A stretch of DNA of 64,000 nucleotides from Candidatus Sungiibacteriota bacterium (GTDB lineage Bacteria; Patescibacteriota; Minisyncoccia; Sungbacterales; HO2-52-23). Where the stretch lies: the NCBI GenBank assembly GCA_016180435.1, contig JACPBG010000001.1, positions 216,006 through 280,005 on the forward strand, read 5' to 3'. Shown here one piece after another: positions 26,954 to 63,950 of this stretch (position 1 is its first letter; each line of letters begins with the position of its first letter). Both the position numbers and the translations under genes were made by a program. The notes beneath the pieces were generated by a model. That model was given only the letters and a program-made list of their open reading frames with translations. It was not told where the DNA came from and did no database searches.

Positions 26954-28132
26954 TTGTATCATACAATGGACAGGAGAAAAATTTTATACGTCATTACCAA
27001 GTCAAACTGGGGAGGGGCGCAAAGATACGTTTATGATCTTGCCACAAATTTGCCGCAGAATCGTTTTGAAATTGCCGCGGCAACCGGAGGAAATGGTCTT
27101 TTGATTCAAAAATTGCGCAAAGCCGGCATACGCATTATAGACATCCGATCCTTTCAACGCGACATAAGTATCCTGAAAGAATTTATGGCATTCTGGCATT
27201 TATTTAAGGTATTTTTGCGCGAAAAACCGGATGTCATACATTTAAACAGTTCCAAAGCAGGCGGGATCGGGGCAGTAGCCGCGTTTCTCTACAAACTAAT
27301 AACTAATAACTGGTTACTGATAACTATCTTTACTGCTCATGGCTGGGGATTTAACGAGCCCCGGGCGCATTGGCAAAAATTCCTGATTAGAATTGCAAGT
27401 CGAACCGCCGCCCTATTTCAGGATAAAATCGTTGTGATAAATAACGCCGATTATGATGCCGTACGCTCATTTATTCCGCCGCACAAACTCTCGCTTATAC
27501 ATAACGGCATACGGCGTCCGGAATTTCTGCCAAGACGCGAAGCGCGCAAATTTTTAGAAGAAAAAATCGGACGTCCGCTTCCCTCCGATACACTAACCAT
27601 AGGAACTATTGCAGAACTCACCAAAAATAAAGGACTCATTTATTTGATTGACGCGGTCAATCAAATAAAAACAAAAAACAAAAGACAAAAGACAAAAGTG
27701 ATTATTATCGGAGAAGGTGAGGATAGAAAGATGCTTGAAGAAAAAATAAAAATATGCAATTTGCAAGATACGATTTTTATTACGGGATTCATTCCGGATG
27801 CCGAAAAATATCTAACGGCATTTGATATTTTTGTGCTCCCGTCGCTAAAAGAGGGCCTCCCCTATACTTTGCTTGAAGCCATGGCCGCCGGACTTCCCGC
27901 TATTGCAACCCGCGTAGGAGGAATTCCGGATATAATCCAAAACAACGAAAACGGCCTTATGGTTCCTCCGTCTGATCCGCAAGCCCTTTCCACCGCGCTT
28001 AAAACGCTCATCGAAAATACTGTAATCCGCGCGCGGCTCGGAAAACAAGCCAACCGAACCGTCAAGACAAAATTCACGCTCAATGCTATGATAGAAAAAA
28101 CAATTTCACTCTATAGCACACATGGCTACTAA
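26954..28132 (+). CDS. Glycosyltransferase family 4 (GT-B, Glycos_transf_1)
   Basis: 392 aa; C-terminal EGLPYTLLEAMAAGLPAIATRVGGIPDII...NGLMV motif. Confidence 0.85.
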   Translation: MYHTMDRRKILYVITKSNWGGAQRYVYDLATNLPQNRFEIAAATGGNGLLIQKLRKAGIRIIDIRSFQRDISILKEFMAFWHLFKVFLREKPDVIHLNSSKAGGIGAVAAFLYKLITNNWLLITIFTAHGWGFNEPRAHWQKFLIRIASRTAALFQDKIVVINNADYDAVRSFIPPHKLSLIHNGIRRPEFLPRREARKFLEEKIGRPLPSDTLTIGTIAELTKNKGLIYLIDAVNQIKTKNKRQKTKVIIIGEGEDRKMLEEKIKICNLQDTIFITGFIPDAEKYLTAFDIFVLPSLKEGLPYTLLEAMAAGLPAIATRVGGIPDIIQNNENGLMVPPSDPQALSTALKTLIENTVIRARLGKQANRTVKTKFTLNAMIEKTISLYSTHGY

Positions 28133-29513
28133 CCGCATCAAAATCACGCTTCTTATTTTAGGGGACTTTCTAACACTCTGGGGAACCCTAATTTTGATTT
28201 TGTTTCTCCGCTATCACGCCGATCAAGATTTCGATCTACAAAAAATGTTTCAAATCCATGTAGCGCCTTTTACTCTCGTATTTGCCGCCTGGCTCGTACT
28301 TTTCGGCGCTTTTGGATTATACGACATACGGACGCTCGGCCTCGTTACCATACGGGATGCGCGGAGGCTTTTATTAAGAATGACGGAAGCAATGGCGTTT
28401 AATACGGCCTCGGCCATTATCATTTTTTATTTGATTCCGGCATTTGAAATCGAACCGCGCCGCAATTTATTCTTGGTGGTTTTGGGATCATTATTCTTCA
28501 TCTTTACATGGCGCTGCCTTATTAATCTTTTCATAACCAAAGCCAAGCCCTTACCGATCGCATTTTTTGGCATTAACAAAGAAGTGGTGGAGCTTGCGGA
28601 TTGGCTCCTGAAAAATCCGCAGCTCGGAAGAAAGCCGGCCGCATTCATATCCGCAAACAGCGAGGACACCCTGCGTCCCCTGCCCCTTCCCGTGTTCACC
28701 CACACCCAAGACATGCAGCATCTAGCGCGCGATTTGGCGCTGGATGCCATAATCATTACCCGCGAGATCAAAGAGAATAAAACACTGACGCGCGCTCTTT
28801 TTCAAATGATACCGCTGGGCGTAGGCATTACGGAATTTACGGCATTCCACGAAATGCTCACCGGAAAAATCCCTTTATCACTCATAGGGGAAGTGTGGTT
28901 TTTGGAAAATCTGGCTGGCAGCCAAAAAGACATATATGAATTTTTCAAACGCGTGCTTGATATCGGACTTGCCATACTTCTGGGCATTCCATTTTTAGTC
29001 CTTTTACCTTTAACTGCAATTTTTATCAAAATCAATTCGCCGGGTAGAATATTCTTCCGGCAAAAACGGGTGGGTAAAAATGGAAAGGAGTTTTTTCTGA
29101 TAAAATTCCGTTCTATGGTGCAGACTGCCGAAAAACTTGGCGGATTTAAAAATGAATCCGAAGACCGCCGCCATACCGGCGTAGGAAAATTTTTAAGAAA
29201 AATATATATTGACGAATTGCCACAAATAATAAATGTTTTGCGCGGTGAAATGTCATTTATCGGACCGCGGCCGGAGCGGCCCGAATATGTCCGCGAACTA
29301 AAAGAAAAAATTCCGTTTTACGAAATGCGACTTTTAGTTCCGCCCGGCATCACCGGCTGGGCGCAAATTAATATGGAGAATGACGCATCCGTGGAGGATG
29401 CGCCGGAAAAAATGCAGTATGATCTTTATTACATCAAAAATCGTTCATTCCTGCTGGATATTCTAGTGGCGCTCCGCACAATTTTTATCATTCTCCGCCG
29501 CCCTGGAAGATAG
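28122..29513 (+). CDS. Polyprenyl-phosphate sugar phosphotransferase (WbaP/PssY-like initiating transferase)
   Basis: 463 aa; N-terminal TM helices, C-terminal Bac_transf domain (KFRSM, DELPQIINVLRGEMSFIGPRPERP, PGITGWAQIN). Confidence 0.85.
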   Translation: MATNRIKITLLILGDFLTLWGTLILILFLRYHADQDFDLQKMFQIHVAPFTLVFAAWLVLFGAFGLYDIRTLGLVTIRDARRLLLRMTEAMAFNTASAIIIFYLIPAFEIEPRRNLFLVVLGSLFFIFTWRCLINLFITKAKPLPIAFFGINKEVVELADWLLKNPQLGRKPAAFISANSEDTLRPLPLPVFTHTQDMQHLARDLALDAIIITREIKENKTLTRALFQMIPLGVGITEFTAFHEMLTGKIPLSLIGEVWFLENLAGSQKDIYEFFKRVLDIGLAILLGIPFLVLLPLTAIFIKINSPGRIFFRQKRVGKNGKEFFLIKFRSMVQTAEKLGGFKNESEDRRHTGVGKFLRKIYIDELPQIINVLRGEMSFIGPRPERPEYVRELKEKIPFYEMRLLVPPGITGWAQINMENDASVEDAPEKMQYDLYYIKNRSFLLDILVALRTIFIILRRPGR

Positions 29514-29576
29514 TTTGACATCTTAATACCAATATGATACCGTAACTTGAGACCCTTAAGTTAGCGGAGTGAAAAA

Positions 29577-29981
29577 ATGGCTTTTAGTATGCAGCGCCTT
29601 GTCCCGGCAAATGAAACTAAAAAGGGGAAGCGCACATGGAATTGGAACATGCCGGACGGAAAACAAATAACGATTTATCAGAGATATCGGGACGAGGAAT
29701 TCGGAAATCACTTCCATAAAGGAGGGGACCCTTCAAAAAATCCGGAAAGGTTTCTCCTTCTTAACGGGATAGTTTATTTTTGGCTCGAAGATAAAAACGG
29801 CCACAGATATACTATGGTACTAGACGCAACCGATGGACCGGTGGAAATCATGATACGACCGTATATTCTCCACGGCGCCCGGGCGCTGGCAGATTGTTGC
29901 TTTATCGAATACCGGCAGAGCAAATTTGATCCGGCACATACAGATACATATCCGGAAGAAATCTTTCGGGAAACACATTAA
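29577..29981 (+). CDS. Cupin-fold protein, WxcM/FdtA-like (sugar ketoisomerase-like)
   Basis: 134 aa; GNHFHKGG metal-binding-like motif, similar to cupins at 44349-44810 and 57212-57604. Confidence 0.5.
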   Translation: MAFSMQRLVPANETKKGKRTWNWNMPDGKQITIYQRYRDEEFGNHFHKGGDPSKNPERFLLLNGIVYFWLEDKNGHRYTMVLDATDGPVEIMIRPYILHGARALADCCFIEYRQSKFDPAHTDTYPEEIFRETH

Positions 29982-30007
29982 AAGAACGCCTGCGCGTTCT
30001 TTTTTTA
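29982..30007 (+). terminator. Rho-independent terminator
   Basis: aagaacgcctgcgcgttctt followed by ttttttt. Confidence 0.7.
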
Positions 30008-30106
30008 ATTTGGATGACCTCTCGTTAAATATTATGGGATAATGGTAAAAATGGGGGGCTAAATATGTTAGTATAAATGATACTTATCAACTAATTTATG
30101 TAAAAG

Positions 30107-30502
30107 TTACAATGGTCTACAAAAAACGGCAAAATTTGCCCTTCCTGCGGCAGAAAAAATGCAAAAAAGAACGGATATTCACGCGGCAAGCAGCAATATA
30201 AATGCTTAAAGTGCAATAAGAAGTTTTCCGGTCAAAGACGACGCGGTATTTTACAAAGTATTCTTTGGCAGCAATACGCCCATGATTATTGCACAGTAGA
30301 TCAACTGACCCGCAAGTATCACCGAAGCGAAAAGTGGATCCGATCTCAACTGGATGCATACCGATTCCCGGAACATAAGATGGCGCCGCGTCCGGTCGTG
30401 ATCGTGGCTGACGCCATGTTCTTTGGAAGACACTGGGGAGTGGTAGTAATGCGCGCTCCGCACAATTTTCATCATTCTCCGCCGCCCTGGAAGATAGGAT
30501 AA
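30107..30502 (+). pseudogene. Zinc-ribbon transposase remnant (IS1/IS1595-type N-terminus; truncated, no ATG start)
   Basis: Frame encodes KNGKICPSCGRKNAKKNGYSRGKQQYKCLKCNKKFS (CxxC-N17-CxxC ribbon) then ...PRPVVIVADAMFFGRHWGVVV resembling the start of a DDE domain; ORF ends inside the duplicated 45-bp segment. Confidence 0.45.
30453..30497. repeat. 45-bp direct duplicate (44/45 identical) of the 3' end of the sugar-transferase gene (copy 1 at 29469-29513)
   Basis: gcgctccgcacaattttcatcattctccgccgccctggaagatag vs gcgctccgcacaatttttatcattctccgccgccctggaagatag; encodes ALRTIFIILRRPGR* in both places. Confidence 0.9.
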
Positions 30503-30548: not shown

Positions 30549-30586
30549 TACTCTGATATGTATACGATCGAAATAATATCAGAGTA
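30549..30586. promoter_or_regulatory. 38-bp palindromic site TACTCTGATAT-N16-ATATCAGAGTA (copy A, downstream of PaaX-like gene)
   Basis: tactctgatatgtatacgatcgaaataatatcagagta; second copy at 31284-31321. Confidence 0.6.
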
Positions 30587-30638
30587 AATCTGAATATCCG
30601 CCGCAGAACCATACAGAAAAATAAGATAGATAATACAT

Positions 30639-31232
30639 TTAAATTTCGTGAATGGTCCCGCGCTTATTTACCGAAAAAATATGAACGTGCGGTAGTAACT
30701 TTCTTTCCCGAATTGCATGAATAAAATCCTCGTCTATGGCATTGCCGCGGCTAACCCAAACGCTTTTTTGCAACAATTTAAATTCCATTTCTCGAAGACA
30801 AGCACGAACCCAATCACGAGCCCTGCGCTCTTTTTCGGGGATGTCAAATGCAACAATTATCAAACCGCTCCCCGTCGGAGGATCAAGTGAAACGGAAAAT
30901 TTTGAAAAATTATTCTGGGAGCGATCACGGATATACCTTAATCGTTCAATGCCACGTTTAGTAATATTCCAAAATGACGACTTTCCTTTTTCTTTTTTTA
31001 CCACCAATCCCTCATGTTGCAAATAATTGAGGGTGTTGTAAAATTGACGATGTTTCCTATAGATATCGGCCCAATCAGTTTTGAACTGGCGCGGACCTTG
31101 AGATAAGAATCTCCGATAATCGCGACGTGCCTCAGATTTAGACATAAAAAAGGATTTAAATAAATCAACGGTCACTTCCGCCTCGAATTGAAGTAATTCT
31201 AGAATTTTTTCGACAAACGTTTCGCGCTTCAT
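30639..31232 (-). CDS. PaaX-family-like transcriptional regulator: N-terminal winged HTH + C-terminal Cas2-like domain
   Basis: 197 aa; C-terminal LIIVAFDIPEKERRARDWVRACLREMEFKLLQKSVWV parallels Cas2 N-terminal beta-alpha-beta (lVlVsYDIsdd.rRrkvaklL..yGqRVQySVF) and the PaaX middle domain. Confidence 0.55.
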   Translation of the reverse strand: MKRETFVEKILELLQFEAEVTVDLFKSFFMSKSEARRDYRRFLSQGPRQFKTDWADIYRKHRQFYNTLNYLQHEGLVVKKEKGKSSFWNITKRGIERLRYIRDRSQNNFSKFSVSLDPPTGSGLIIVAFDIPEKERRARDWVRACLREMEFKLLQKSVWVSRGNAIDEDFIHAIRERKLLPHVHIFSVNKRGTIHEI

Positions 31233-31283
31233 TTAAATATATTCAGTGGCCAAAAACCGCGTTCCAGCCCGCAAAAATTTATA

Positions 31284-31321
31284 TACTCTGATATTTATAC
31301 GATCGTATTTATATCAGAGTA
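31284..31321. promoter_or_regulatory. 38-bp near-perfect palindrome (copy B) ~50 bp upstream of PaaX-like gene; putative operator
   Basis: tactctgatatttatacgatcgtatttatatcagagta (34/38 self-complementary). Confidence 0.6.
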
Positions 31322-31382: not shown

Positions 31383-32294
31383 TCAAAAAATATGCAACAG
31401 AGTTTTCAACTCATTTATTCCGTCAACAAAAGATATTTTTGGTTCCCAGCCGAGAAGTTCTTTGGCTTTCTTGATATCGGCCAAAGTTTCTAATACTTCG
31501 CCCTGGCGCGATTCGATAAATTTCCACGGCCCGCCGATCATCTCGGCGATTTCAAGAACACTGTAGTTCGTTGCCGTACCGATATTTACTATTTCTCCTT
31601 TGCCTACTTGACCGGATTTCATGGCAAGCAAATTGGCGCGCGCCACATCCGTAACGTGCGTAAAATCCCTACGCTGGGTCCCATCCGGCACCACACTCAT
31701 TGGCGTACTATTCGCACGTTGCTCTAAAAAAATTCCAATTACAGTTGCATATGGTCCGTCGGAAGCAGTGGTTTGCCGAGGCCCATAAACATTAAAATAA
31801 CGCAAAGAAACTGTTTCTAGGCCATAAAAACGCGCGGCCATTTCGCAATATTGCTCCCCCACTCTTTTCTGAATCGCGTAAGGAATAATGGGCTCCGGAC
31901 GCATGTCCTCCGTAAGAGGCATCACATCTTTTCTGCCGTACGCGGAGGAAGACGCGGAATACACCACTCTTTTGACTCCCGCATCGCGCGCCGCCAAAAG
32001 AACATTCAACGTTCCAGTAATATTGATATCATTGGTAAGCCGCGGCTCTTTCAGGGAATATTGCATTCGGGGTTGCGCCGCAGTATGGAAAATTCCCGCT
32101 GCACCCTTGAAAACCGGCGCAAGTTTGTCAAAATCGCGGATATCCATCTCATGAAGGATGGCCTTAGGATTTAGCCGCTCGCGCTTGCCGGTCAAAAAAT
32201 TATCAATAACATGCACTTCGTCGCCGCGCGCAATCAGCATATCCACAATATGGGAGCCGATAAAACCAGCCCCGCCGGTTACAATAAATTTCAT
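31383..32294 (-). CDS. NAD-dependent nucleotide-sugar epimerase/dehydratase (extended SDR)
   Basis: 303 aa; TGGAGFIGSH Rossmann motif, YxxxK (YAIQK). Confidence 0.85.
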   Translation of the reverse strand: MKFIVTGGAGFIGSHIVDMLIARGDEVHVIDNFLTGKRERLNPKAILHEMDIRDFDKLAPVFKGAAGIFHTAAQPRMQYSLKEPRLTNDINITGTLNVLLAARDAGVKRVVYSASSSAYGRKDVMPLTEDMRPEPIIPYAIQKRVGEQYCEMAARFYGLETVSLRYFNVYGPRQTTASDGPYATVIGIFLEQRANSTPMSVVPDGTQRRDFTHVTDVARANLLAMKSGQVGKGEIVNIGTATNYSVLEIAEMIGGPWKFIESRQGEVLETLADIKKAKELLGWEPKISFVDGINELKTLLHIF

Positions 32295-32356: not shown

Positions 32357-33325
32357 TCATACTTCCTTATTCATTTTCTTCTGTATCCATTCCTTATCAT
32401 GCACTGATACATCTTCTTCGGTAAGTCCCTGGGTTTCTAAAAGCGTTCGGTTGTACTCGCGCATGGACTTCAAAAAATTGATTCCCGCGGCCAGGCGCTT
32501 ATATTCATGCGATCCGGCGGGAATCCTTGTCAAAAATTCTTCTCCGCGCGCAATCAAGGCGCTGGTATCTTTCGGAAAACAATATCCGCCGTATCCGCGA
32601 TAACTATGATATCCGACATCCAGCCAGGATCCTCCGATCCGGCGGTCATGCGAAAGCATGACGCGGACATTCTCATAATCGGTTTTGGTTTTTGACATGC
32701 CGGACACCGTGGAGATTGCATCGCAAAAATCTTTAATAATATTCCCAAATGTTACTTTAAACGCTCCGAAAAGATTCCCCGCATATTTTCCCAACTCCGC
32801 TTCGGTGGCGTTCAGGCGCAAAAATTCATAGGTGCCAAGCGCTCCGGGAGAAGAAAAATATGCCATCGGGAGAAGATTTAAAATTGTACTCGCATAAGAT
32901 TTAGAGTGAGCAGTATATCCGACCACCTGCCGATCGGGATTTAGCATATCTTCCCAAGCCCGCGATTCAGTCAAAAATTCCGGATTGAATAAAATTTTAT
33001 GGTGCGGATGGCGCTTTTGCAGTTCTTCGGTGGTGCCCGGCGGAACGGTTGATTTTACAATTATGATTTTTTCGGAGCTTAACATCCCGAGGGCGGATTC
33101 CACCGCGCTTATATCAGCCGAGCCGCCTGCGGTCATGGGCGTCGGGACGCAAATAAAAACCGCGTCGGCAAAATTGATGTTATCATGAAATCCTTTTTTA
33201 GGATCAATATCATATAGGAACAATTCTTCACCGCGCTTGTATCCGCGAATTTCCTCAAAATACCGCTTAAGCGGAGTCCCCACCATGCCAATACCCATAA
33301 TCCCGATTTTTAATTGAGACACCAT
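32357..33325 (-). CDS. Nucleotide-sugar dehydrogenase (UDP-glucose/UDP-ManNAc 6-dehydrogenase family)
   Basis: 322 aa; N-terminal GxGxxG (IMGIGMVG), catalytic GGYCFPKD motif. Confidence 0.8.
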   Translation of the reverse strand: MVSQLKIGIMGIGMVGTPLKRYFEEIRGYKRGEELFLYDIDPKKGFHDNINFADAVFICVPTPMTAGGSADISAVESALGMLSSEKIIIVKSTVPPGTTEELQKRHPHHKILFNPEFLTESRAWEDMLNPDRQVVGYTAHSKSYASTILNLLPMAYFSSPGALGTYEFLRLNATEAELGKYAGNLFGAFKVTFGNIIKDFCDAISTVSGMSKTKTDYENVRVMLSHDRRIGGSWLDVGYHSYRGYGGYCFPKDTSALIARGEEFLTRIPAGSHEYKRLAAGINFLKSMREYNRTLLETQGLTEEDVSVHDKEWIQKKMNKEV

Positions 33326-33355: not shown

Positions 33356-35659
33356 TTACTGACTCCCTCCTTGCAGTTGCTTAAGAAATCCTTCCACTTC
33401 TTTGGCTAAACCAGGGTCAAGCCGGGCCGCAGTTTCAGCCTCCGCAATCGCGCGCTCCTTCTCCCCGAAAAATGCGAGCAAAGAAGCCAGTAAAGCATGA
33501 TATTTGGCGTTATCCGGATATCTTAAAATCAACTCTTCATAAAGCGTGCGGGCCGAAACAAAATCTCCGGCTTGCTGATAAAGTCCGGCCAAACGCTCCA
33601 CAGTCTCCACGGCCATTATATCCTGACGAAAGTAGGTCTTGGCCTTTTCAACAGCATCCGCGCGCTTTGCCATGTACCCGACTGCCAGAAGATTGACCGC
33701 GGCATCCTGATAGGACGGCTCCAGATCAAGAACCTGTTGCAGAACTTTTACCGTTTCATCGATTCTTCCCTGATTGAGGTAAACCTGCGCCAGCTCAAAA
33801 TAAATTATTTGCTTTCCCGGACTCAAACCAATCGCTTCCTTCAGGGCATTTTCCGCCTCAACCGCGTATTGGGGGTTCAGGCGCGCGGCGCGCGACATTA
33901 AAGCCCCTAAAAATAATTTATGCTTTACATCCGGAGCGGGAATTGAGGCTTCACGCCGCAACTCTTCAACGGAAAAATCGATCATTTTTTTATGTTCATC
34001 TTCGGTGTATTTACTATGCCCAATCACGCCGCGGGCCAGATTTGAAAGCTGTTCCCTGACTTCCGTATCGCCGAAAGTATTATAAGCAAGGGCATTCTTA
34101 AAATATTGGATAACTTCGTCCATGGGACGCTGGGCTTGATATGACTGCAGCGCCACGATAAGTCCTTTGGACTCAAGAACCGGCTTTGCGTGGAACTGAT
34201 ATCCTCCTATAAGAAAAAAAGCGATAAACGCTACTAAAACAGCATACGCAAGCCCTGCGCTCACGGGATGCGACGCCGCGCCCCTGACCGCGCCGGGATG
34301 AGTTTTATCATGACGAAGTTTTTCTTTTAGGGCGGCTGGAGCAGTGACTGCCTCGCGCGGAGCGGTTAAAACCTCTGTGTAGGCCAAAAAGGAGAAAAAG
34401 AGCAAATATGTGTTTAGATTGTCAAAAACAAAGATATTTTGCAGAAAATATGTAAGAAAAAGCGCGGAAATTATCAAGCCCTCAAAAGGCGCAACATTCC
34501 CTTTTTGCAAAGAATGAAAAATCAGCCAAAGCGATACGCCGATAAGCGAAAGATAACTCAAGAGCCCCAAAAAACCGGCATGGATCAGCCAGTCAAAAAA
34601 AACATTGTGCGAGCGGTCAAACCACGGCTCCTGCTGATACAGGCGCGGATCGAAATATTTCTGGAAAACCAGATAATAATTTTCCTGCCCCCATCCGAAA
34701 ATCGGACGCTCCAGCACTGCCTTGGAAGACATGCGCCATATCATAAAACGGGACTGAATGGTGCGCTCCTGAAAAGAATAACTGGTCAAGCGCGAAAGCA
34801 CCGGACTGGAGCGGACAAAATCGCTTTCCCGGGCAAACCAAAAAATAAACGGAATTGCCGCCACGGTGAACAAAACAGCTCCGGCCCATTTACGCATTTG
34901 AGAAACAGCCGGAAACATTTTCTTCCAGAATACGACGCTGGCAATACTCAAAAAAATCAAGGCGCCGGCGATAGCCAATGTGGCCCCCCGGGTTGCGGTA
35001 AAATAAATAATTATAAGCTCAAAAATAAGCGCCGCGCCGTAAAGGGCCGAGAGCCACCATTTTTTCCAAAATTGGTACAAAAGAATAAAAAGAAGCCAAA
35101 TATGAAAAACCAAATACGCCGCAAGATAGGTCGGATTTCCAATGGTTGAATCCACCCGAAATCCGCCCTGCAATGATATTCTATAGCCAAGGCGCTGGGT
35201 AAGCGCAATGTATGACACAATTAAACTCGCAATCAGAGTGGAGTGAAAAAATATCAGCCAATCACGCCGAGTCTTAAAAACAGAGGCGAGCATCACAAAA
35301 TAAATATAAAGATGGAAGAGCATCATAAATCCCTCCATGCGCTCATAATTGGAAAAAAATGCGCGATATGGATTGGGGCTGAAAAGATCCGCTAAAAATA
35401 AAATTACTATAAAAATCGTGGCGGCCTTGAAAAGCGGGGTCAGGCGGGGCCTAAACTCGGAACGCACCATGGCCAGAAAGACCCAGAATATAAAAATAAA
35501 TTCCACAGTAATGCGAAAAGCAAAATTCTTCCCCGTGATAAAGGGAAAAAGCATGGAGGAGGAAACATAAAGCGGCAAAAAGGGAATAACCCAGAGGCCG
35601 ATCTTTACGATCCAAAGAAAGAATTGTTCTTGAGGTTTAAGTTTCATATATACATCCAA
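33356..35659 (-). CDS. O-antigen-ligase-like (Wzy_C) polytopic membrane protein with C-terminal TPR repeats
   Basis: 767 aa; ~10 TM helices, SHNVFFDWLIHAGFLGLL matches Wzy_C H-N motif; C-terminal TPR-like repeats. Confidence 0.65.
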   Translation of the reverse strand: MDVYMKLKPQEQFFLWIVKIGLWVIPFLPLYVSSSMLFPFITGKNFAFRITVEFIFIFWVFLAMVRSEFRPRLTPLFKAATIFIVILFLADLFSPNPYRAFFSNYERMEGFMMLFHLYIYFVMLASVFKTRRDWLIFFHSTLIASLIVSYIALTQRLGYRISLQGGFRVDSTIGNPTYLAAYLVFHIWLLFILLYQFWKKWWLSALYGAALIFELIIIYFTATRGATLAIAGALIFLSIASVVFWKKMFPAVSQMRKWAGAVLFTVAAIPFIFWFARESDFVRSSPVLSRLTSYSFQERTIQSRFMIWRMSSKAVLERPIFGWGQENYYLVFQKYFDPRLYQQEPWFDRSHNVFFDWLIHAGFLGLLSYLSLIGVSLWLIFHSLQKGNVAPFEGLIISALFLTYFLQNIFVFDNLNTYLLFFSFLAYTEVLTAPREAVTAPAALKEKLRHDKTHPGAVRGAASHPVSAGLAYAVLVAFIAFFLIGGYQFHAKPVLESKGLIVALQSYQAQRPMDEVIQYFKNALAYNTFGDTEVREQLSNLARGVIGHSKYTEDEHKKMIDFSVEELRREASIPAPDVKHKLFLGALMSRAARLNPQYAVEAENALKEAIGLSPGKQIIYFELAQVYLNQGRIDETVKVLQQVLDLEPSYQDAAVNLLAVGYMAKRADAVEKAKTYFRQDIMAVETVERLAGLYQQAGDFVSARTLYEELILRYPDNAKYHALLASLLAFFGEKERAIAEAETAARLDPGLAKEVEGFLKQLQGGSQ

Positions 35660-37048: not shown

Positions 37049-37056
37049 CCCGTTAG

Positions 37057-37146
37057 AAGTATAATTCTTAAAAAAACACGCCTCTTAAAAATACAGGTGT
37101 TATCATTTGATCCTGTAGAAAGTATAGACCCAAACTTCTAACGGGA
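37057..37146. mobile_element. Small TIR-bounded element copy b: TCCCGTTAGAAG ... CTTCTAACGGGA
   Basis: 12-bp terminal inverted repeats of the CCCGTTAGAA family flanking ~66 bp; fills the neuC-flippase intergenic region. Confidence 0.6.
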
Positions 37147-53704: not shown

Positions 53705-53707
53705 ACC

Positions 53708-54447: not shown

Positions 54448-55182
54448 ATGAACTATCGCGTTGATTTAGTCGTTCCGGTATATAACGAGCGGGAAACATT
54501 TCCGGCGCTTTATGATTTTATCAGTAAAAACGTAAAATCCGATTGGCGGTTATTCGTTGTATATGACTTTCCTGAAGATACAACGCTGGAAGTTGCCAAA
54601 CCGGTTTCGGATAAAGATCCACGGATAAAACTTGTTCTGAATTCCGAACGCGGAGGACTTGGCGCAACCAAAACCGGTTTTTACGCCGCCCAAGCCGAGG
54701 CAATCATGTTTATCATGGCTGACAATAGCGAGGATATGCTTAAAAAAATAGATGAGATGGTGCAACGATTTTATGAGGAAAAAGCGGATATTGTCGTAGC
54801 GTCCCGCTACATGAGAGGGGCTACGCGGCGCGGAGGACCTTTTTTAAAGGGGGTAATTTCCCGCCTTGCCAGCTTGTCTCTACACTGGCTTATTGGCATT
54901 CCCACTCATGATGCGACTGAAAATACACGAATATACCGCAAATCAATGCTCAAAGAAATTTCCATTGAATCGCAAAAAACATTTGAAGTGTCGCTTGAAG
55001 TTATCATAAAGGCGCACCTTCTCGAAAAAAAAATAATTGAAGTGCCGGTAATTTGGATTGACCGAAAAAATTACAGAGGAGAATCAAAATTCAAAACATG
55101 GCAATGGCTTCCGTACTATCTTTATTGGTATTTATACGGAATAAAGCATTATTGGGTGAAAAAATTACGCCGCACCCCCTAA
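54448..55182 (+). CDS. Glycosyltransferase family 2 (Dpm1/GtrB-like)
   Basis: Start at MNYRVDLVVPVYNE (track ORF begins 54382 and would overlap the divergent gene); GT-A motifs. Confidence 0.75.
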   Translation: MNYRVDLVVPVYNERETFPALYDFISKNVKSDWRLFVVYDFPEDTTLEVAKPVSDKDPRIKLVLNSERGGLGATKTGFYAAQAEAIMFIMADNSEDMLKKIDEMVQRFYEEKADIVVASRYMRGATRRGGPFLKGVISRLASLSLHWLIGIPTHDATENTRIYRKSMLKEISIESQKTFEVSLEVIIKAHLLEKKIIEVPVIWIDRKNYRGESKFKTWQWLPYYLYWYLYGIKHYWVKKLRRTP

Positions 55183-56231
55183 AAAAACTTTTTAACGATT
55201 CCGAGAACTCCTTGATTCCAGAGCGAGCGATTTCCTTTTCCGCTTGACATGCGAAGAGTATCTTTGTGTTCACGGTACCATTGAAACGCATCAATCAATA
55301 TCTCTTTATTGCTTTTTTGCGGCGACCATCCAAGTTTTTCTATTTTATCAATTGATCCGAAAAAATCTATGTCGGCCGTCTCATAAATCCAATGGTGCAG
55401 GGGCGAGAGGCCGACTTTATCAAAAAACCTTAGTGCTACTTTCACCGGAAAAGCCGGGAGCGGAAAAATCTTTGATCCTGAATTTGCGAAACTGCAAAGC
55501 GCCTCAAGATCGCCGCGAATAGTTCCGAACTCTTTTGCTCCGATATTAAACGTATCGTTCACGCGGATATCGCTGCTTGCCGCGACAAAAAGTATCGCGC
55601 GAATCGCGTCATCAACCGAGAGAAATTGATGGCGATTAGTTCCGGACCCGATGATGGGAACCCGCCTCCCGGCCATAATCCACTCAAATAAAATCTGAAA
55701 CGCGCCAAGCCGTTCGGCTCCGATTACTGTCGGCAACCGAAGTATGGGAATTTTCATATCTTTTTTCCGGTATATTTCACAATATTGCTCAGCGATTTTT
55801 TTGCTTCCGCTGTAAGCATCACGGCTTATCAAAGGATGGTCTTCGGTCAGCGGAACGCGCTGCGGAATGCCATAAGCATAGATGGAAGATAAAAATACAA
55901 ATGTCTTAATGCCTTTTTTATACGACTCCTCAAGAAGTATCCGGGTTCCATCGGCATTCACCGAATGAATATCTTCATCTTTCTGAAGCGGCAAAGCCGC
56001 GGCCGCATGTATGACAATATCAATCCCAATAAGCGCCCGCCGTACATCTTCAATGCTACGCACGTCGCCTTTGATAAATTTGATTGCGGAGGGCACAGGA
56101 GATTTAGGAAAATTTTCAAAATCCAGGATCGTTACTTCAAATCCGTTGTTCAAAATATTAAGTACAAGATTGCTTCCTATAAAACCCGACCCGCCTGTGA
56201 CTAAGTAACGCATATTCTTATTGAGATTCAA
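55179..56231 (-). CDS. NAD-dependent nucleotide-sugar epimerase/dehydratase
   Basis: 350 aa; [11 protein letters not shown], YxxxK (YSGSK). Confidence 0.85.
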
Positions 56232-57156
56232 GATACCAATTTATGGTCTTTTGCAAACCCTCTTCAAGCGCAACATTGGCTTGAAAACCAAATCGTTCCT
56301 TAGCCTTGGTTATATCCAGCATCCGGCGCGGCTGGCCGTCCGGCTTAGTGGTATCCCAAACGATTTTTCCTTTATACCCGACGAGTTTTCCTATAAGCTT
56401 TACTAATTCTTTTATAGGCATTTCATGGCCCGAGCCCAAATTTATCGGCTCTGAAGAATCATACCGTTCGGTTGCCAAAACAATTCCCTCGGCGGCATCT
56501 TCGGCATACAAAAATTCGCGCGATGCGCTTCCGGTCCCCCATACTGTCACTTCAGGAATATTATTTTTTTTGGCCTCCACGAATTTAACTATGAGCGCGG
56601 GTATAACATGCGAATCTTCCAAATCAAAATTGTCCCGCGGGCCGTAAAGATTCACAAGCAAGAGATAAATCGCATTAAACCCGTACTGCTGGCGGTAGGC
56701 CTGGGCCTGCACCAAAGGCATTTTTTTTGCCAAGCCATACGGCGCATTGGTTTCTTCCGGATAACCGTTCCATAAATCCTCTTCTTTAAAAGGGACCGGC
56801 GTAAACTTAGGATATGCGCAGATGGTGCCCACCACCACAAACTTTTTAATACCCTCCAGGCGCGCCGCCTCCATAAGCTGGGTTCCCATCATAAGATTGT
56901 CGTAAAAAAGCTCGGCAGGTTTTTTGCGGTTAAATCCAATGCCGCCGACATTGGCCGCAGCATGAATCACGATATCTTTCCCCCGAACCACATCAACGCA
57001 ATTTTCCCATATTCGCAAATCATGCTCTTTGGAGCGCGTAACGAACATGTTTTCTTTCGGAACTCGCCGTGCCCGTAATTTATCCACGATAAAAGAACCC
57101 AGAAATCCGGCTCCTCCGGTGACTAAAATTTTCTTGGTTTTAAGGTCTATTGACAT
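56218..57156 (-). CDS. fcl: GDP-L-fucose synthase (GDP-4-keto-6-deoxymannose 3,5-epimerase/4-reductase)
   Basis: 312 aa; [46 protein letters not shown] typical of Fcl. Confidence 0.85.
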
Positions 57157-57642: not shown

Positions 57643-58674
57643 TTATGCGAGCCGGATTTTTTCAGCTTCTTTTTCAAGACCATGGCTTTTAAGATCGTGT
57701 TTTACCATGATTTTCACCAAATCGCTAAATTCGGTCTTGGCTTCCCAGCCAAGTTCTTTTTGGGCTTTAGCGGGATTGGCCACCAAATGTTCCACCTCGG
57801 TCGGACGGTAATAACGAGGGTCAACACCAACATAGTTTTGCCAGTCCGAAATACCAACGCAGGCAAACGCCGCTTCCACAAAATCACGCACCGAATGGCT
57901 CACGCCCGTACCAATTACGAAGTCATCAGGTTTTTCACGTTGCATCATACGCCAAGCCGCATCCATATATTCCGGGGCAAAACCCCAGTCCCGCCGCGCG
58001 TCCAAATTTCCCAAATAAATTTTCTTATCCAGTCCCGCAAGTATCCGCGCAATTCCCCGCGTAATTTTCCGCGTAACAAACGTCTCGCCGCGCCGCTCGG
58101 ACTCGTGATTAAACAATATGCCATTTACCGCAAAAATTCCGTACGCTTCGCGATAATTTATGGCGGTATGATACGCAAAAACCTTAGCGGCTCCATACGG
58201 ACTCCGTGGATAAAATGACGTTTTCTCATTTTGCGGGGGGGGTGCGGCTCCAAACATCTCGGAAGAACTTGCCTGATAAAATTTAACTTTTTTACTGCCT
58301 TGTTCTTCATAATCCTTAATGGCCTCCAGAATCCGAAGCGCGCCCAGGCCGGTGATATTGGCCGTATATTCGGGTATGTCAAAAGAAACGCGCACATGCG
58401 ATTGCGCGCCCATATGATAAAATTCATCCGGCTGGATTTTATAGATAAGTTTTCTAACCGTATTGGCATCCGCCAAATCGCCATAATGCAAAAAAAACCG
58501 CACGCCCTGAAGATGCGGATCCTGATAAATATGATCAATCCGTCCGGTATTAAAGGTGGATGCGCGACGAATAACGCCATGCACCTCATACCCTTTCTCC
58601 AACAAAAATTCGGCCAAGTACGAGCCGTCTTGCCCGGTAATTCCCGTAATTAAGGCCTTTTTAAATTCAACCAT
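57643..58674 (-). CDS. gmd: GDP-mannose 4,6-dehydratase
   Basis: 343 aa; [28 protein letters not shown] hallmark N-terminus. Confidence 0.9.
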
Positions 58675-58769: not shown

Positions 58770-59345
58770 TCATCTCTTCTTTCTACTCACGCGAGTTGGC
58801 GGAAAAATGAAACCATAAAGATCCACAATAGCCGGGAATACTCCTTCCGAAATAAGCTTCTCACGAGTAAAAGGAATTAAACCCCCTCCGATTTTATACT
58901 CATCTTTATCAAGGTGCCTGGATGCGTAAACAAGTTCCTTTGATGTAAGTTCTACTGTGAAGGTATAAGTAGCCATGTGGCATCCAACTGTCTGTGGCAG
59001 CTGCGCCCTATCTTTCCAACGATAATCAAAGATCGCAGTAAGTTTAAACCGATTTTGAGAAAATGCGAGTCCGGTCTCCCGTTTGAAATTTCTCGTTACC
59101 GCTTCTTCTTTGGTCTCATACGGCTCCATTCGACCGCCTATCCAAAACCAACCTATCATTGGCTTTGACTGTCGCCGCGCCAGATAAATTACTTTCCGTT
59201 TAACGTCAATTGGAACAATATCAGCGCAAGCAAATACGAAACACTGAAGTCCCTTGCCATATTCCTTATCGGGAAGACGAACAAACGGTATGGGTTTATA
59301 CCCATCTTCCGTGTAACTGCTAATCAGAACTTTTTCTTGCCCCAT
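58770..59345 (-). CDS. NUDIX hydrolase (GDP-mannose mannosyl hydrolase-like)
   Basis: 191 aa; degenerate Nudix box GGRMEPYETKEEAVTRNFKRETGL; adjacent to gmd/fcl as in gmd-fcl-gmm operons. Confidence 0.5.
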   Translation of the reverse strand: MGQEKVLISSYTEDGYKPIPFVRLPDKEYGKGLQCFVFACADIVPIDVKRKVIYLARRQSKPMIGWFWIGGRMEPYETKEEAVTRNFKRETGLAFSQNRFKLTAIFDYRWKDRAQLPQTVGCHMATYTFTVELTSKELVYASRHLDKDEYKIGGGLIPFTREKLISEGVFPAIVDLYGFIFPPTRVSRKKR

Positions 59346-61229: not shown

Positions 61230-61829
61230 TTATTCGCCTTGTTTTTCAAAAAGCGTGGTCCATTGGGGAGTGCGCATAAATATCAAACCGCTTTTAACAT
61301 GCCGTAAATTTGTGCCGGAGGCAAATTTTAGAACTTTTTTAGGCGTTAAGCGATGAACGTGGAAACGATATCCTAAAAACGGGTTTCGATGAATTTTCCA
61401 GGCGCCCCGCGCATGAGCCATACCGCGAAATAATTCCCAAGGATATACAAAAAACGCAAGACCGCCGGGCTTTAATACACGGTCCACTTCATGAAATACC
61501 GACTGTAAATCCTTAATGTGTTCTATAGTGTGCAAAGAGTAAATCTTGTCAAAACTTGATGAAGGAAAAACAAGTTTGGTTGCATCCATAACCATAGCCT
61601 CTCCTCCACAATGTTCTTTCAAAGCATCGGGGTTTATGTCAATGCCGACAACTTTTCGCGCCACTCGAGCCACCTTTTGCTGGACAAAACCATTATCGCA
61701 TCCGATATCCAACACCATATCTTTACTATCAATAGCCAGCGTCTTAATTACAAGGTCAGCCAATTTATCTCTTTGGATGAGCCAATCATCTTTGGGCAGA
61801 ACTACTTTAGAATACTTACGGTCATACAT
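61230..61829 (-). CDS. Class I SAM-dependent methyltransferase
   Basis: 199 aa; motif I VLDIGCDNG, Methyltransf_11-like. Confidence 0.75.
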   Translation of the reverse strand: MYDRKYSKVVLPKDDWLIQRDKLADLVIKTLAIDSKDMVLDIGCDNGFVQQKVARVARKVVGIDINPDALKEHCGGEAMVMDATKLVFPSSSFDKIYSLHTIEHIKDLQSVFHEVDRVLKPGGLAFFVYPWELFRGMAHARGAWKIHRNPFLGYRFHVHRLTPKKVLKFASGTNLRHVKSGLIFMRTPQWTTLFEKQGE

Positions 61830-61862: not shown

Positions 61863-63950
61863 TTAGTAGATGCTCATTTTCTCAAGAAAAAGGCGAGATG
61901 ATCCCTGGTATTCAAATAAAACTTCATGGCTTCCCTCCGGAACATATACGGCCTGAAACAGATAGTTTGCATTATAAATCTGCGCGCGTTTTCCGTCAAT
62001 TTCCGCAATCCAGCCCGGGATATTGGATTCACTAAACACAAGCCACCCGCCTTTTTCCGTCTCAACGGATAATTTCACTTTTCCGTTCAAGTATTCGTTT
62101 ACCGTAACTTTTCCCTGACTTTCCGTTTCTTTACAATCCTTACACTCAATGAATGTTTTTTCCTTAAAGTCCTTGTTTTCCGCGACTGCCAAAAGCAAAT
62201 CCCGCTCCGATCCGCGCCAAAAAAACGGGTGCCGAGCAAAATATGTTCTGGGCAAAAATTGCATATTCTCATAAAGATGAAATGGAACCGATAGGGATGA
62301 ATTTTCTTCCACCGGAATTTCCCGAAGTCCGGGGTGCCCAAGAGGATAAATTGAGATAATATATTTTACGTTCATCATGGAAAGAAGCGGCAGGCGCGCG
62401 GCAAAATCCGCCGCCTTTTCCTCAATGGAAACAACCCGCAGTGCTTTATCATTAACTTTCTGGTCAATCCGTGCGTTATTTTTTACCGCACCAGCATCAA
62501 AAACCGCAACCCGCCCGGGAGCAAGCACGGTTTCAATCAGCTGGTTTTGCCGCATGGTGCGGAGCGACTCATATCCCCACATATTTTGCAGGCCGTAAAA
62601 CGCCCCGATCTGGTTCGTCAAAAACTCCCGATGCAAAATCGCCTGCTCCTCCGCGGAAACCGAGCGCCGCGAGGTTAATTCGCGAAACATCCCTTCTCCG
62701 AAAAGAAACGGGAGAATACGAAACGAAGCAAGATCACTCTCCCGCGCCTTTATAATACGCAAAACCGCCGGCTCTTTGGCCAGAAGCGACTGCGGAATAA
62801 AAGAATCAAATGAAAAAGAAAAAGCGAGCCACGCGTTTAATGCAGTTGCCATAATTACGCACCACCCCAACCAACGGAATGGATAATTTCTCGCAAAAAA
62901 ATAAATCAGAAAAACAGCGGCAGGAATAAGCAAAACCGGAATTCCGAATGCCGGATTCAATAACGATATGTGCATCCGCAAATCGCTGATAGTCAAGTCA
63001 AACGCCGCCGCATAGTGCTCAAAAGGAAATATTCGCGCCCGATCTCCCAAAATAAAAGACAAAAGGCGCGATTTAAAATCAGGGTTTTGTGAAAGACGCG
63101 CTAAAAAAATATTTAGCGCGGCAATACCGCCTACGATAAGAAAAGACGCCGCTAGGCCGCCCCGCAAAAAATTTATAAATTTTTTCTCTTGAAACCATTC
63201 CCGCGGCTTATTTAAAAATTCATTAAATCCGTGCGCCGCAAGATATGCAAGCGGGATTGCGGCGGCATAAAGCCATCGGGTAGGACTTGTAATGCGGGAA
63301 AAAACCGGAAAATACCGGTTAAACCAGGAAAAGGGGGCAAGATCCGCCGCCATGGCAAAGAGTATAAAATAAGAAATCAGAAAAAACCATACCTCCCGCG
63401 TACGGAAAAAAATAACCGCCATAAGCGCAAAAATAAACGGGAAAACTCCTATATAAAAACCGGCGGTACTTATGGAAACTTGGGGAATATCAAAATTCGG
63501 CGGCAAAAATAAATAAATCCATTCTCCCCAAGGGAGCGATTCAGAAACTTGGGCTGTATATCCCGGAACCCGAACCGATAAATCAAGATACTGCCAGGTT
63601 GGCAAAAGCTGCGGAAGCGCCAAGACCGCACCCCCGGCCACCGCTAATACAAGAAAAAAAGCAGTCCGGAACCGCCATATCAGCGATTCGCCTTGCCCGG
63701 TAATATCAAGAAAAAGCGCATACGCCCAGGCAAAAGTGATGCTGTAAAGAACTATATGCGGCACACCGGCTAAAAAACCAACCGCGCCTCCCGCCACACC
63801 TGCCAAAAAATACGGAATAAGCGCGCGAACCGAATCAGATTGTCGGATACGCAAAGCAATAAATAACAGCAGAGGAAGAACAAAGAATCCATTGGCAAAG
63901 GCAAAACTAACGTATAAAGCCGCGAACGTCTGGCCGATGGCATAAGCCAT
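61863..63950 (-). CDS. YfhO-family-like polytopic membrane protein (second paralog)
   Basis: 695 aa; multiple TM helices; C-terminus NIPGWIAEIDGKRAQIY...FEYQG parallels the 49703-52198 protein. Confidence 0.5.
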   Translation of the reverse strand: MAYAIGQTFAALYVSFAFANGFFVLPLLLFIALRIRQSDSVRALIPYFLAGVAGGAVGFLAGVPHIVLYSITFAWAYALFLDITGQGESLIWRFRTAFFLVLAVAGGAVLALPQLLPTWQYLDLSVRVPGYTAQVSESLPWGEWIYLFLPPNFDIPQVSISTAGFYIGVFPFIFALMAVIFFRTREVWFFLISYFILFAMAADLAPFSWFNRYFPVFSRITSPTRWLYAAAIPLAYLAAHGFNEFLNKPREWFQEKKFINFLRGGLAASFLIVGGIAALNIFLARLSQNPDFKSRLLSFILGDRARIFPFEHYAAAFDLTISDLRMHISLLNPAFGIPVLLIPAAVFLIYFFARNYPFRWLGWCVIMATALNAWLAFSFSFDSFIPQSLLAKEPAVLRIIKARESDLASFRILPFLFGEGMFRELTSRRSVSAEEQAILHREFLTNQIGAFYGLQNMWGYESLRTMRQNQLIETVLAPGRVAVFDAGAVKNNARIDQKVNDKALRVVSIEEKAADFAARLPLLSMMNVKYIISIYPLGHPGLREIPVEENSSLSVPFHLYENMQFLPRTYFARHPFFWRGSERDLLLAVAENKDFKEKTFIECKDCKETESQGKVTVNEYLNGKVKLSVETEKGGWLVFSESNIPGWIAEIDGKRAQIYNANYLFQAVYVPEGSHEVLFEYQGSSRLFLEKMSIY

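Follow-up and report, generated by a model that had tools for sequence, protein, structure and literature searches.

What kind of surface structure is encoded by the long run of sugar genes beside murB in a genome of Candidatus Sungbacteria (Patescibacteria), a lineage of the Candidate Phyla Radiation (CPR), and to what is that structure attached? We addressed this question in a stretch of 64,000 nucleotides (contig JACPBG010000001.1, positions 216,006 to 280,005; hereafter the window), in which about 32 glycan genes lie within positions 26954–64000 (Table 1). Gene families were assigned by listing open reading frames (ORFs) and searching Pfam, NCBIfam and the PDB, with 50+ window ORFs scanned. 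The locus was compared with three sister-species loci (L010, L097 and L098; core 66–89% identical in amino acids, 73–78% in nucleotides), a complete Sungbacteria genome (L100/L101; core 49–62% amino-acid identity), a further relative (L099), a sister strain (L105; about 86% nucleotide identity to the window), a contig from the window's own population (L102; 100% identical over 4.4 kb), a NeuB locus (L012) and three loci of unplaced taxonomy on short contigs (L094–L096). With a probability of about 60%, we read the locus as an undecaprenyl-phosphate-based system that assembles a surface glycoconjugate in three layers with known enzyme families; judged by sequence comparison, it is a lineage-conserved core joined to strain-variable modules.

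The conserved part begins at position 26954, a sensible left boundary adjoined by a 174-residue ORF, an M24 peptidase gene and murB, all housekeeping or conserved. It comprises a GT4 glycosyltransferase, an initiating phosphoglycosyl transferase (PGT; Bac_transf E 8e-62; TIGR03025 345 bits against a cutoff of 296), a Cas2-like ORF, an epimerase of the short-chain dehydrogenase/reductase (SDR) family, a short gene resembling UDP-glucose dehydrogenase (UGDH), and the gene for a membrane transferase with a Wzy_C domain and C-terminal TPR. By DNA and protein comparison this core is collinear beside murB in the sister species and in L100/L101, and partly so in L099. The GT4 and PGT genes are syntenic in L010, L097 and L098 (66–83% amino-acid identity) and in L100 (52–58%); the epimerase and UGDH-like proteins are 84–89% identical in the sister species and 54–62% in L099 and L100; and the flippase Wzx follows the core in L097 and L098 at 81–83% until the contigs end. 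UGDH-like orthologues (window, L010, L097–L101) are 308–346 residues long and have neither the C-terminal UDP-binding domain nor part of the N-terminal domain. Because the gene is kept beside the Wzy_C-TPR gene throughout the lineage, we do not regard it as a pseudogene.

Elsewhere gene content turns over. Upstream of the Wzy_C-TPR gene, L100 carries an LPG-synthase/methyltransferase fusion, GFO_IDH, an ArnC-like GT2, a DegT aminotransferase, a methyltransferase and a PMT_2 GT-C enzyme, and L099 a GT2, a methyltransferase and a sugar-phosphate/nucleotidyl module. The sister strain keeps FdtA, RmlD, the TagB-like glycosyltransferase, a cupin and NeuA; its EamA gene is missing (about 945 bp of the window correspond to 58 bp), and a GFO_IDH oxidoreductase lies directly beside FdtA, where the window has an SGNH and then a carbamoyltransferase gene. 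A preliminary description of this DNA had seen the whole region as an accessory island undergoing surface-glycan diversification, and had proposed conservation across relatives as the check. The comparison divides the locus: the left ~10 kb, about a third, are conserved and stay syntenic beside murB even where the proteins are only ~49–62% identical, and are not accessory, while the remainder is clearly variable, its turnover among relatives agreeing with diversification.

To what, then, is the product attached? The preliminary description proposed looking for an oligosaccharyltransferase elsewhere in the genome; the most likely candidate is instead the Wzy_C-TPR protein inside the locus, with its WaaL-like fold and WsfB/PglL architecture. 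In a model built from a deep alignment (pLDDT 85), its closest fold is the ligase WaaL, and the Wzy_C domain lies, as in WaaL, in a large extracytoplasmic loop between transmembrane (TM) helices 9 and 10 of a 12-TM core. Past helix 12 come a K/R-rich loop, a 13th hydrophobic helix (residues 466–487) and then the TPR domain, which on this model should face outward. The family is large (3946 matches), and the best 120 of the 3946 are all full-length and at least 49% identical. That the protein is conserved while neighbouring sugar genes vary is expected of a ligase or oligosaccharyltransferase with a relaxed choice of donor, and not of a serotype-specific polymerase. A Wzy_C domain with C-terminal TPR has been reported for the S-layer O-oligosaccharyltransferase WsfB and for the pilin or general O-oligosaccharyltransferase PglL (PMC2943079). 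Because of the WaaL-like topology, the lineage conservation and this WsfB/PglL-type architecture we favour protein O-glycosylation, at roughly even odds, over a polymer as the product. Wzx, encoded next to it, matches Polysacc_synt_3 with 60.7 bits (cutoff 23), has at least eight TM segments and is 48% identical in L094, where it lies beside neu genes.

For the sugars of the product, we turn first to the neuC–neuB–neuA set. NeuC scores 325 bits with TIGR03568 (cutoff 236), its best PDB matches being the GNE epimerase domain and LegG-type enzymes. NeuB, with both NeuB and SAF domains, aligns end to end with Neisseria meningitidis NeuB/SiaC (428 bits, 57% identity) and is much less similar to SpsE (173 bits) or PseI (129 bits); the NCBIfam models agree (NeuB 375, PseI 236), although the 374.8 bits with TIGR03569 fall just under the equivalog cutoff of 399.65. 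NeuA, short and without an esterase domain, matches CTP_transf_3 and, in the PDB, NeuA/CMP-Neu5Ac synthetases (124 bits). Among the scanned window ORFs, no dehydratase, aminotransferase or acetyltransferase specific to legionaminic (Leg) or pseudaminic (Pse) acid adjoins the neu genes. The proposed CMP-nonulosonic-acid donor can thus be narrowed, through the 57% identity of NeuB, to the N-acetylneuraminic acid (Neu5Ac)-synthase type: its likely product, starting from UDP-GlcNAc, is Neu5Ac or a sugar very close to it, and the decorated surface sugar chain probably carries sialic acid. The literature searched contained no account of nonulosonic-acid loci in CPR, which is not proof of novelty.

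This branch, too, varies among relatives. More than 580 metagenome loci, in genomes of 29–70% GC, encode a NeuB 65–74% identical to the window's; because NeuB of this type is extremely conserved, high similarity alone is no proof of recent transfer. In L094 (9875–10999) and L095 (12497–13603), NeuB is only 31–33% identical to that of the window and ambiguous in type (NeuB model 251–267, PseI 222–224), while NeuC, NeuA and Wzx remain 45–53% identical. Within a module that is related in its other parts, one synthase type has apparently taken the place of another, much as Tannerella strains swap Pse and Leg (PMC5420450).

The sugar so activated has a candidate transferase in the same operon. Once labelled TagF/polysialyltransferase-like, this protein is better described, from its HP motif and its linkage to neu genes, as a TagB-like GT-B and candidate nonulosonic-acid transferase. 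It matches Glyphos_transf (42 bits, Pfam), and its true start is probably the methionine at 43281. Many of its 135 homologues are labelled Sungbacteria or Patescibacteria, and an RPHP motif with an invariant histidine is present in 13 homologues. The family adjoins neu genes in the window, in L012 (40% identity), in about nine further NeuB loci and in L094 and L095. In Tannerella, the genetically validated Pse/Leg transferase BFO_1060/Tanf_01245 is a TagB-like GT-B with an HP motif (PMC5420450). We infer from motif and linkage that the window's enzyme would transfer a CMP-activated nonulosonic acid.

The least expected result is a recurrent gene linkage of the YfhO-like proteins. The two in the window are, as had been supposed, true paralogues (30% identity over about 700 residues, E 7e-63). 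YfhO-2 as cut by the window matches PF09586 with 36.6 bits (cutoff 28.5), and the full 866-residue protein encoded on L102 matches this family too; YfhO-like-1 reaches only 18.4 bits, its homologues carry PF09586, and the best PDB folds for its AlphaFold2 (AF2) model (pLDDT 74) are ArnT, AftD, PMT, EmbB, STT3 and AglB, all GT-C enzymes using polyprenyl-phosphate-linked donors. Homologues of YfhO-like-1 (35–44% identity) lie directly beside a TagB-like homologue in L094 and L096, and with one GT2 between them in L095. In L094 and L095 they are also accompanied by neuC, neuA, neuB and Wzx, and in L095 homologues of YfhO-2 and of the 418- and 231-residue GT2s are present as well. This recurrent linkage, seen in three loci only, suggests that the GT-C enzymes act on the same nonulosonic-acid-bearing glycan. 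In the known CsbB/GtcA/YfhO scheme of transmembrane glycosylation YfhO works with a GT-A partner, and GT-C decoration in known systems targets the product of a neighbouring pathway (PMC8035078). By analogy, the Dpm1-like GT2s would supply polyprenyl-phosphate sugars to the YfhO enzymes. The name 'Dpm1-like' was fair for these three GT2s, since what they match best are synthases of polyprenyl-phosphate sugars (AglJ, ArnC, dolichyl-phosphate hexose transferase, PpgS and the DPMS structure 5mlz); the window also has a fourth GT2, 418 residues long.

YfhO-2 shows as well that the cluster does not end at 63950, where it had been closed. Its frame is open to the last base of the window, and the full gene lies on L102 (window position 64000 corresponds to L102 position 7106), which extends the locus by at least 7.1 kb, from at least 37 kb in the window to at least 44 kb. 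Upstream of YfhO-2 on the same strand, the UbiA-family enzyme best matches decaprenyl-phosphate phosphoribosyltransferase (198 bits, cutoff 234). With a GMC oxidase taking the place of DprE1, these genes recall the mycobacterial route to decaprenyl-phospho-arabinose and by this analogy could make a lipid-linked pentose donor for YfhO-2.

Nearly every gene named in the preliminary description was confirmed by Pfam, NCBIfam or PDB searches. Scores with TIGR03025, TIGR03568, TIGR01181 and TIGR01472 lie above their curated NCBIfam cutoffs, and Wzy_C, NeuB, the N and C domains of the carbamoyltransferase, FdtA and YfhO (paralogue 2) above those of Pfam; the cupins needed correction, with four small cupin-type ORFs (starts 29577, 41529, 44349 and 57212) instead of one. 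The dTDP-L-rhamnose pathway (RmlABCD) is incomplete in the window, RfbB lying above its cutoff and the RmlD-like reductase below (183 bits against 224); the RmlD-like and FdtA-like proteins are 87–92% identical in L105. On the GDP side, an extra SDR beside the Fcl-like gene suggests a second GDP-6-deoxyhexose. Directly upstream of the carbamoyltransferase, a small membrane ORF weakly resembles SxtJ, a small protein that accompanies the saxitoxin O-carbamoyltransferase. Gene content thus bears out a surface glycan of several sugars, heavily modified, with branches for CMP-nonulosonic acid, GDP-6-deoxyhexose and dTDP-6-deoxyhexose.

The comparisons above show to which families the genes belong, that WaaL-like and GT-C folds are present, how conservation is distributed and which genes are linked; the sequence of steps, the exact sugars and the acceptor are inferred. 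The WbaP-class PGT and the GT4 would start a polyprenyl-diphosphate-linked glycan, with a core sugar supplied by the epimerase and the short UGDH-like protein. NeuC, NeuB and NeuA would make a CMP-activated, Neu5Ac-type nonulosonic acid, and the TagB-like GT-B would add this residue in the cytoplasm; Gmd, Fcl and the extra SDR may make GDP-6-deoxyhexoses, and RfbB, the RmlD-like reductase and the cupins a dTDP-6-deoxyhexose; the carbamoyl-, methyl- and SGNH enzymes would modify the glycan. Wzx would flip it across the membrane, and the Wzy_C-TPR protein would transfer it to an acceptor other than lipopolysaccharide (LPS), most likely as a protein O-oligosaccharyltransferase for pilin or S-layer-type proteins. 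The three Dpm1/ArnC-like GT2s are predicted to make polyprenyl-phosphate monosaccharides, which the two YfhO-type GT-C enzymes would transfer after export. The setting agrees with what had been proposed: the host belongs to Sungbacteria, a Parcubacterium has been reported without lipid A genes and the envelope structure of CPR described as poorly understood (PMC5220378), and a type IV pilin gene is present in the window.

Several observations weigh against this model. All its functional statements are drawn from homology, and NeuB, NeuA, Fcl and RmlD fall under the NCBIfam equivalog cutoffs. The TagB-like glycosyltransferase reaches 46.8 bits with the BFO_1060 model NF046086 (cutoff 200), aligned over residues 236–296 only; because this is so far under the cutoff, we take it as a related TagB-like GT-B and not as a member of the BFO_1060 family. 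The small GT2s score 39–105 bits against family cutoffs of 325–529 and have no predicted TM helices, whereas CsbB/GtrB has C-terminal ones; the window has no GtrA/GtcA-type flippase ORF, its only extra transporter being the EamA/DMT protein that is missing in L105. Neither an rmlA-type nucleotidyltransferase nor a canonical rmlC was found in the window, which has the FdtA-like and other cupins instead. Pilin or S-layer proteins, proposed as targets from the outset, are plausible, but neither an acceptor protein nor an S-layer gene nor a sequon for glycosylation was identified. The mixed orientation of the genes suggests several transcription units, possibly for different products, and the Wzy_C protein could equally be a polymerase. 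Were it a Wzy-type polymerase, the locus would make a secreted or wall-associated heteropolysaccharide (capsule, exopolysaccharide (EPS) or secondary cell-wall polymer), decorated by the YfhO enzymes as teichoic acids are in Firmicutes. The classical Wzx/Wzy route to polysaccharides does combine a PGT with Wzx and Wzy_C, the families matched best by the PGT and GT4 are of EPS and PEP-CTERM type, and the characterized YfhO enzymes modify lipoteichoic and wall teichoic acids. We nevertheless hold a polymer of this kind to be unlikely: the fold is closest to WaaL, the architecture matches WsfB and PglL, the protein, unlike the variable sugar genes, is highly conserved throughout the lineage, and scans of the window found neither an LCP ligase nor a chain-length regulator (Wzz/PCP), although the latter could lie elsewhere in the genome.

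A division of the locus into several independent glycan pathways standing side by side (the core, the nonulosonic-acid genes, and two or three systems of GT2/GT-C decoration, each with its own target) is possible, if on the doubtful side. Across the locus the coding strand changes at least ten times, and transcription units are many and short; the core occurs without neu or YfhO genes in L099 and L100, and the neu/TagB-like/YfhO module without a visible Wzy_C-TPR gene in L094–L096; and YfhO-2 stands in an operon with its own donor-synthesis genes past the window. Yet the window has one initiating transferase, the window and the 7.1 kb beyond it have one Wzx/Wzy_C pair, GT-C decoration in known systems acts on the product of the neighbouring pathway, and the contigs of L094–L096 are short, so that absence of the core there is not established. 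It is improbable that the nonulosonic acid is instead legionaminic acid or another 5,7-diamino sugar, its missing early genes being encoded elsewhere. NeuC-type hydrolysing epimerases serve the legionaminic pathway too, the second-best PDB match of NeuC is the Acinetobacter diNAcBac 2-epimerase, NeuA best matches PseF among NCBIfam models (195.5 bits, under the cutoff of 205.7), and the related L094 and L095 have a different, ambiguous NeuB; against this stand the full-length likeness of NeuB to a biochemically defined Neu5Ac synthase, the PDB matches of NeuA, and the lack of an adjacent aminotransferase, N-acetyltransferase or 4,6-dehydratase of the Leg/Pse route. We consider it very improbable that the region as a whole was recently acquired as a foreign island, or that it is a chimera of assembly or binning. 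Several genes of the variable part have a GC content of 0.385–0.41, against 0.474 ± 0.023 for housekeeping genes, and NeuB is similar to genes from genomes of widely differing GC; the dips in GC and in third-position GC (GC3) are modest and confined to some genes, and composition is not decisive for foreign origin. A tRNA- or integrase-bounded integrative island was rejected, with no tRNA in the window and no integrase among the scanned ORFs, as was an assembly chimera, the junctions recurring in independent contigs at 99.8–100% identity. The left part is moreover syntenic in several Sungbacteria and Parcubacteria genomes, and the YfhO-like, TagB-like and Wzy_C-TPR proteins have their closest homologues among entries annotated as Sungbacteria or Patescibacteria.

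The surface glycoconjugate reading can also be set against known systems. The surface-layer protein O-glycosylation (slg) loci of monoderm Firmicutes (wsa of Geobacillus stearothermophilus and wsf of Paenibacillus alvei), together with PglL/PilO pilin O-glycosylation, share with the window a WbaP-like initiating transferase, nucleotide-sugar genes (rml, FdtA-type), a methyltransferase, a TagB-like enzyme and undecaprenyl-linked glycan export; WsfB and PglL combine Wzy_C with a C-terminal TPR, as does the window's candidate O-oligosaccharyltransferase. We count a host without LPS and with a type IV pilin as a further likeness. The window departs from these systems in that neither an S-layer gene nor a proven acceptor adjoins the locus, that the TPR region following the 13th TM helix of the CPR protein is much longer, that this protein belongs to a large, highly conserved CPR-specific family, and that modules for nonulosonic acid, GDP-fucose and carbamoylation are present in addition, as are two YfhO GT-C enzymes. 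General protein O-glycosylation in Tannerella forsythia, which ends in terminal Pse/Leg, likewise combines a CMP-nonulosonic acid pathway with a TagB-like GT-B bearing an HP motif and a nearby methyltransferase, and the nonulosonic acid differs by strain there as the NeuB type differs among relatives here; unlike Tannerella, the host is a monoderm-like CPR bacterium, the synthase is of Neu5Ac type, and the TagB-like enzyme is coupled to YfhO-like GT-C genes in related loci. The three-enzyme route from UDP-GlcNAc is that of Neisseria and Escherichia coli K1 (NeuC/SiaA, NeuB/SiaC, NeuA/SiaB), but the window has no polysialyltransferase (GT38) or ABC capsule export and uses a Wzx-type pathway in a CPR host. 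As in the CsbB/GtlA–GtcA–YfhO/GtlB systems of Gram-positive wall polymers, candidate GT-A polyprenyl-phosphate sugar synthases lie beside YfhO-family GT-C genes; unlike there, no GtrA/GtcA flippase lies in the window, the GT2s are short and have no TM helices, YfhO-like-1 is a weak Pfam match, and no teichoic-acid backbone genes were identified in the window.

Table 1. Features of the window and its continuation (window positions unless stated; aa, amino acids; nt, nucleotides)
Feature	Position	Strand	Remarks
Housekeeping genes cysS, dnaB, recR, metK with SAM riboswitch, secA, murB			left flank
Type IV pilin	15078-15626		
GT4 glycosyltransferase	26954-28132	+	core part 1; Pfam
Polyprenyl-phosphate hexose-1-phosphate transferase, WbaP/WcaJ class	28122-29513	+	core part 1; Pfam, NCBIfam
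Strain-specific ~1 kb insert	29514-30497		after the transferase gene
Cupin-like ORF, 134 aa	29577-29981		in insert
Zn-ribbon-like ORF fragment	30119-30452		in insert
Duplicate of transferase 3' end	30453-30497		repeat D6, 45 nt, 98% identical
Cas2-like/PaaX_M ORF, 197 aa	30639-31232 (unit 30550-31320)	-	Pfam PaaX_M E 6e-13
GalE/TviC-like SDR epimerase	31383-32294	-	core part 2
Short UGDH-like protein	32357-33325	-	core part 2; without C-terminal domain
WaaL/PglL-like membrane transferase	33356-35659	-	Wzy_C, 13th TM helix, C-terminal TPR; candidate ligase or O-oligosaccharyltransferase
Wzx-type MOP flippase	35660-37048	-	Pfam Polysacc_synt_3, Polysacc_synt
neuC, hydrolysing UDP-GlcNAc 2-epimerase	37147-38424	-	
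neuB, Neu5Ac-synthase type	38406-39452	-	
neuA-type CMP-nonulosonate synthetase	39756-40523	-	in four-gene operon 39756-43368
EamA/DMT transporter	40654-41532	-	same operon
Cupin	41529-41936	-	same operon
TagB-like GT-B	41917-43281 (ORF extends to 43368)	-	same operon; candidate nonulosonic-acid transferase
RmlD-like reductase	43454-44374	+	
FdtA-like cupin	44349-44810	-	
SGNH esterase/acyl-hydrolase	44976-46094	-	N-terminal TM
NodU/CmcH-type carbamoyltransferase	46060-47823	-	
Membrane ORF, 80 aa	47839-48081	-	weak SxtJ resemblance (E 0.009)
GT2, 418 aa	48359-49615	+	other type than the small GT2s
YfhO-like GT-C paralogue 1	49703-52198	-	
rfbB, dTDP-glucose 4,6-dehydratase	52499-53539	+	TIGR01181 414 bits, cutoff 365
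Dpm1/ArnC/AglJ-like GT2, 231 aa	53708-54403	-	one of divergent pair
Dpm1/ArnC/AglJ-like GT2, 266 aa	54382-55182	+	other of divergent pair
Extra SDR	55179-56231	-	GDP-6-deoxyhexose branch
Fcl-like	56218-57156	-	NF047922 best match, 293 bits, cutoff 500
Cupin-like ORF, 130 aa	57212-57604	+	
gmd	57643-58674	-	TIGR01472 509 bits, cutoff 415
NUDIX	58770-59345	-	
AglJ/Dpm1-like GT2, 228 aa	59601-60287	+	
ORF, 262 aa	60359-61147	-	weak NUDIX match
Class I SAM methyltransferase	61230-61829	-	
YfhO GT-C paralogue 2	61863-64000	-	cut by window end; 866 aa in full
PgpA-like phosphatase; SDR; GMC oxidoreductase and small subunit-like ORF; 617-aa unknown protein; UbiA-family enzyme	L102 1-7105		upstream of YfhO-2, same strand
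Palindrome-ended elements ACCCCGTTAGAA...TTCTAACGGGGT	26184-26284, 37047-37147, 39537-39642, 52234-52356; half-site 52429-52440		second copy in Wzx/neuC gap
9-nt periodic motif arrays AATTAGNNN	3648-3800, 5156-5299, 12819-12894, 39654-39729		

Small inserts and repeats punctuate the locus. The ~1 kb insert behind the transferase gene is missing in the sister species, where ~110 bp separate the flanking genes, and is unchanged in Logan contigs of the same population, which occurs in the runs SRR12113383-429 and SRR4343428/30. The duplication of the transferase 3' end noticed earlier is real; the accompanying 'IS remnant' was not confirmed, the Zn-ribbon-like fragment having no significant transposase match, no significant Pfam match (best E 0.004–0.2) and no homologue in any compared locus. 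The Cas2-like ORF (69% amino-acid identity in the sister species) is bracketed by two near-identical 36-nt palindromes (30550–30585 and 31285–31320); those of L010 (3962–3999 and 4625–4662) have the same architecture and the same ACGATCGT centre, with different arms, which suggests an operator pair for the encoded PaaX_M/Cas2-like protein or a cassette-like unit.

The small mobile elements described before are likewise real: inverted ACCCCGTTAGAA/TTCTAACGGGGT pairs 84–111 nt apart delimit palindrome-ended units of ~100 nt, with 9 motif matches against 0.26 expected. Only their ends (12–16 nt) are common; the interiors are unrelated. The element at 26184 is in the same position in the sister species, and a 102-nt copy lies in frame within the TagB-like gene of L105 (3257–3358); as that copy is missing in the window, the element has moved. 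All four copies lie within the glycan locus or no more than 800 nt from its left edge, but the 'hotspot' once seen here is unproven: with four copies and uneven intergenic space, the distribution is indistinguishable from chance. Short-read contigs break within these repeats. Integron attC sites were rejected, since the GTTAGAA/TTCTAAC order is opposite to that of attC core sites and the interiors are neither alignable nor palindromic, only the 12–16-nt terminal stem pairing; non-alignable interiors also fail to support a family of miniature inverted-repeat transposable elements (MITEs), and a REPIN-like description fits better. A further motif, AATTAGNNN (12 matches against 0.04 expected), forms arrays that flank the recR/PD-(D/E)XK gene pair in inverted orientation and are part of a 76-nt repeat (92% identity) common to the regions directly upstream of metK and neuB.

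Left of the locus, the sole match of an Rfam scan is a SAM-I riboswitch (12972–13077), outside the glycan genes; about 220 nt separate it from the metK start (region 12749–13077), and this spacer contains the repeat also found upstream of neuB. Promoter and terminator scans gave counts equal to the shuffled expectation and were uninformative. An aromatic amino acid ammonia-lyase, an AMP-dependent ligase and a thiolase cluster at 5801–10316 as a phenylpropanoid-like activation set, unexpected for a metabolically reduced CPR genome. Between murB and the gene for a ribosome hibernation factor, an ~800-bp insertion relative to the sister species (22546–23340) carries a 172-residue ORF without a family match. 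Among species-representative genomes, the nearest one found was that of Parcubacteria group bacterium GW2011_GWA2_45_30. YfhO-like-1 and the Wzy_C-TPR protein have identical counterparts in an NCBI metagenome-assembled genome of Candidatus Sungbacteria bacterium (locus tag HYT98_01275).

A locus of this kind, an undecaprenyl-phosphate-based surface glycan or protein-glycosylation locus, is already known; its interest here rests on the CPR host, the complete Neu5Ac-type pathway and the conserved core with swappable modules. A large part of bacterial diversity belongs to CPR/Patescibacteria, which live attached to other cells, and a recent overview of the field does not mention glycosylation, polysaccharide, S-layer or teichoic acid (PMC11665869). 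Genomes of such bacteria are roughly 1 Mb (a complete relative, CP066690.1, has 923 kb), so that about 4–5% of the genome would be spent on this one locus, implying strong selection on the cell surface. The split into core and modules yields hypotheses: a candidate O-oligosaccharyltransferase, a candidate sialyltransferase family and strain-level markers of surface variation traceable in metagenomes. In a wider and quite speculative picture, which we think more probably wrong than right by a good measure, Sungbacteria and related Parcubacteria would share a lineage-wide system of general protein O-glycosylation, in which a 13-TM WaaL/PglL-like transferase with an external TPR arm places a strain-variable, carbamoylated and methylated glycan with a sialic acid cap onto pili or other surface proteins, a CPR-typical TagB-like/YfhO pairing diversifies the coat outside the membrane, and one GT-C enzyme is fed by a decaprenyl-phospho-arabinose-like polyprenyl-phosphate pentose pathway encoded just past the window. 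If this is true, these episymbionts would have in the glycan coat their main variable interface for attaching to hosts and evading phages.

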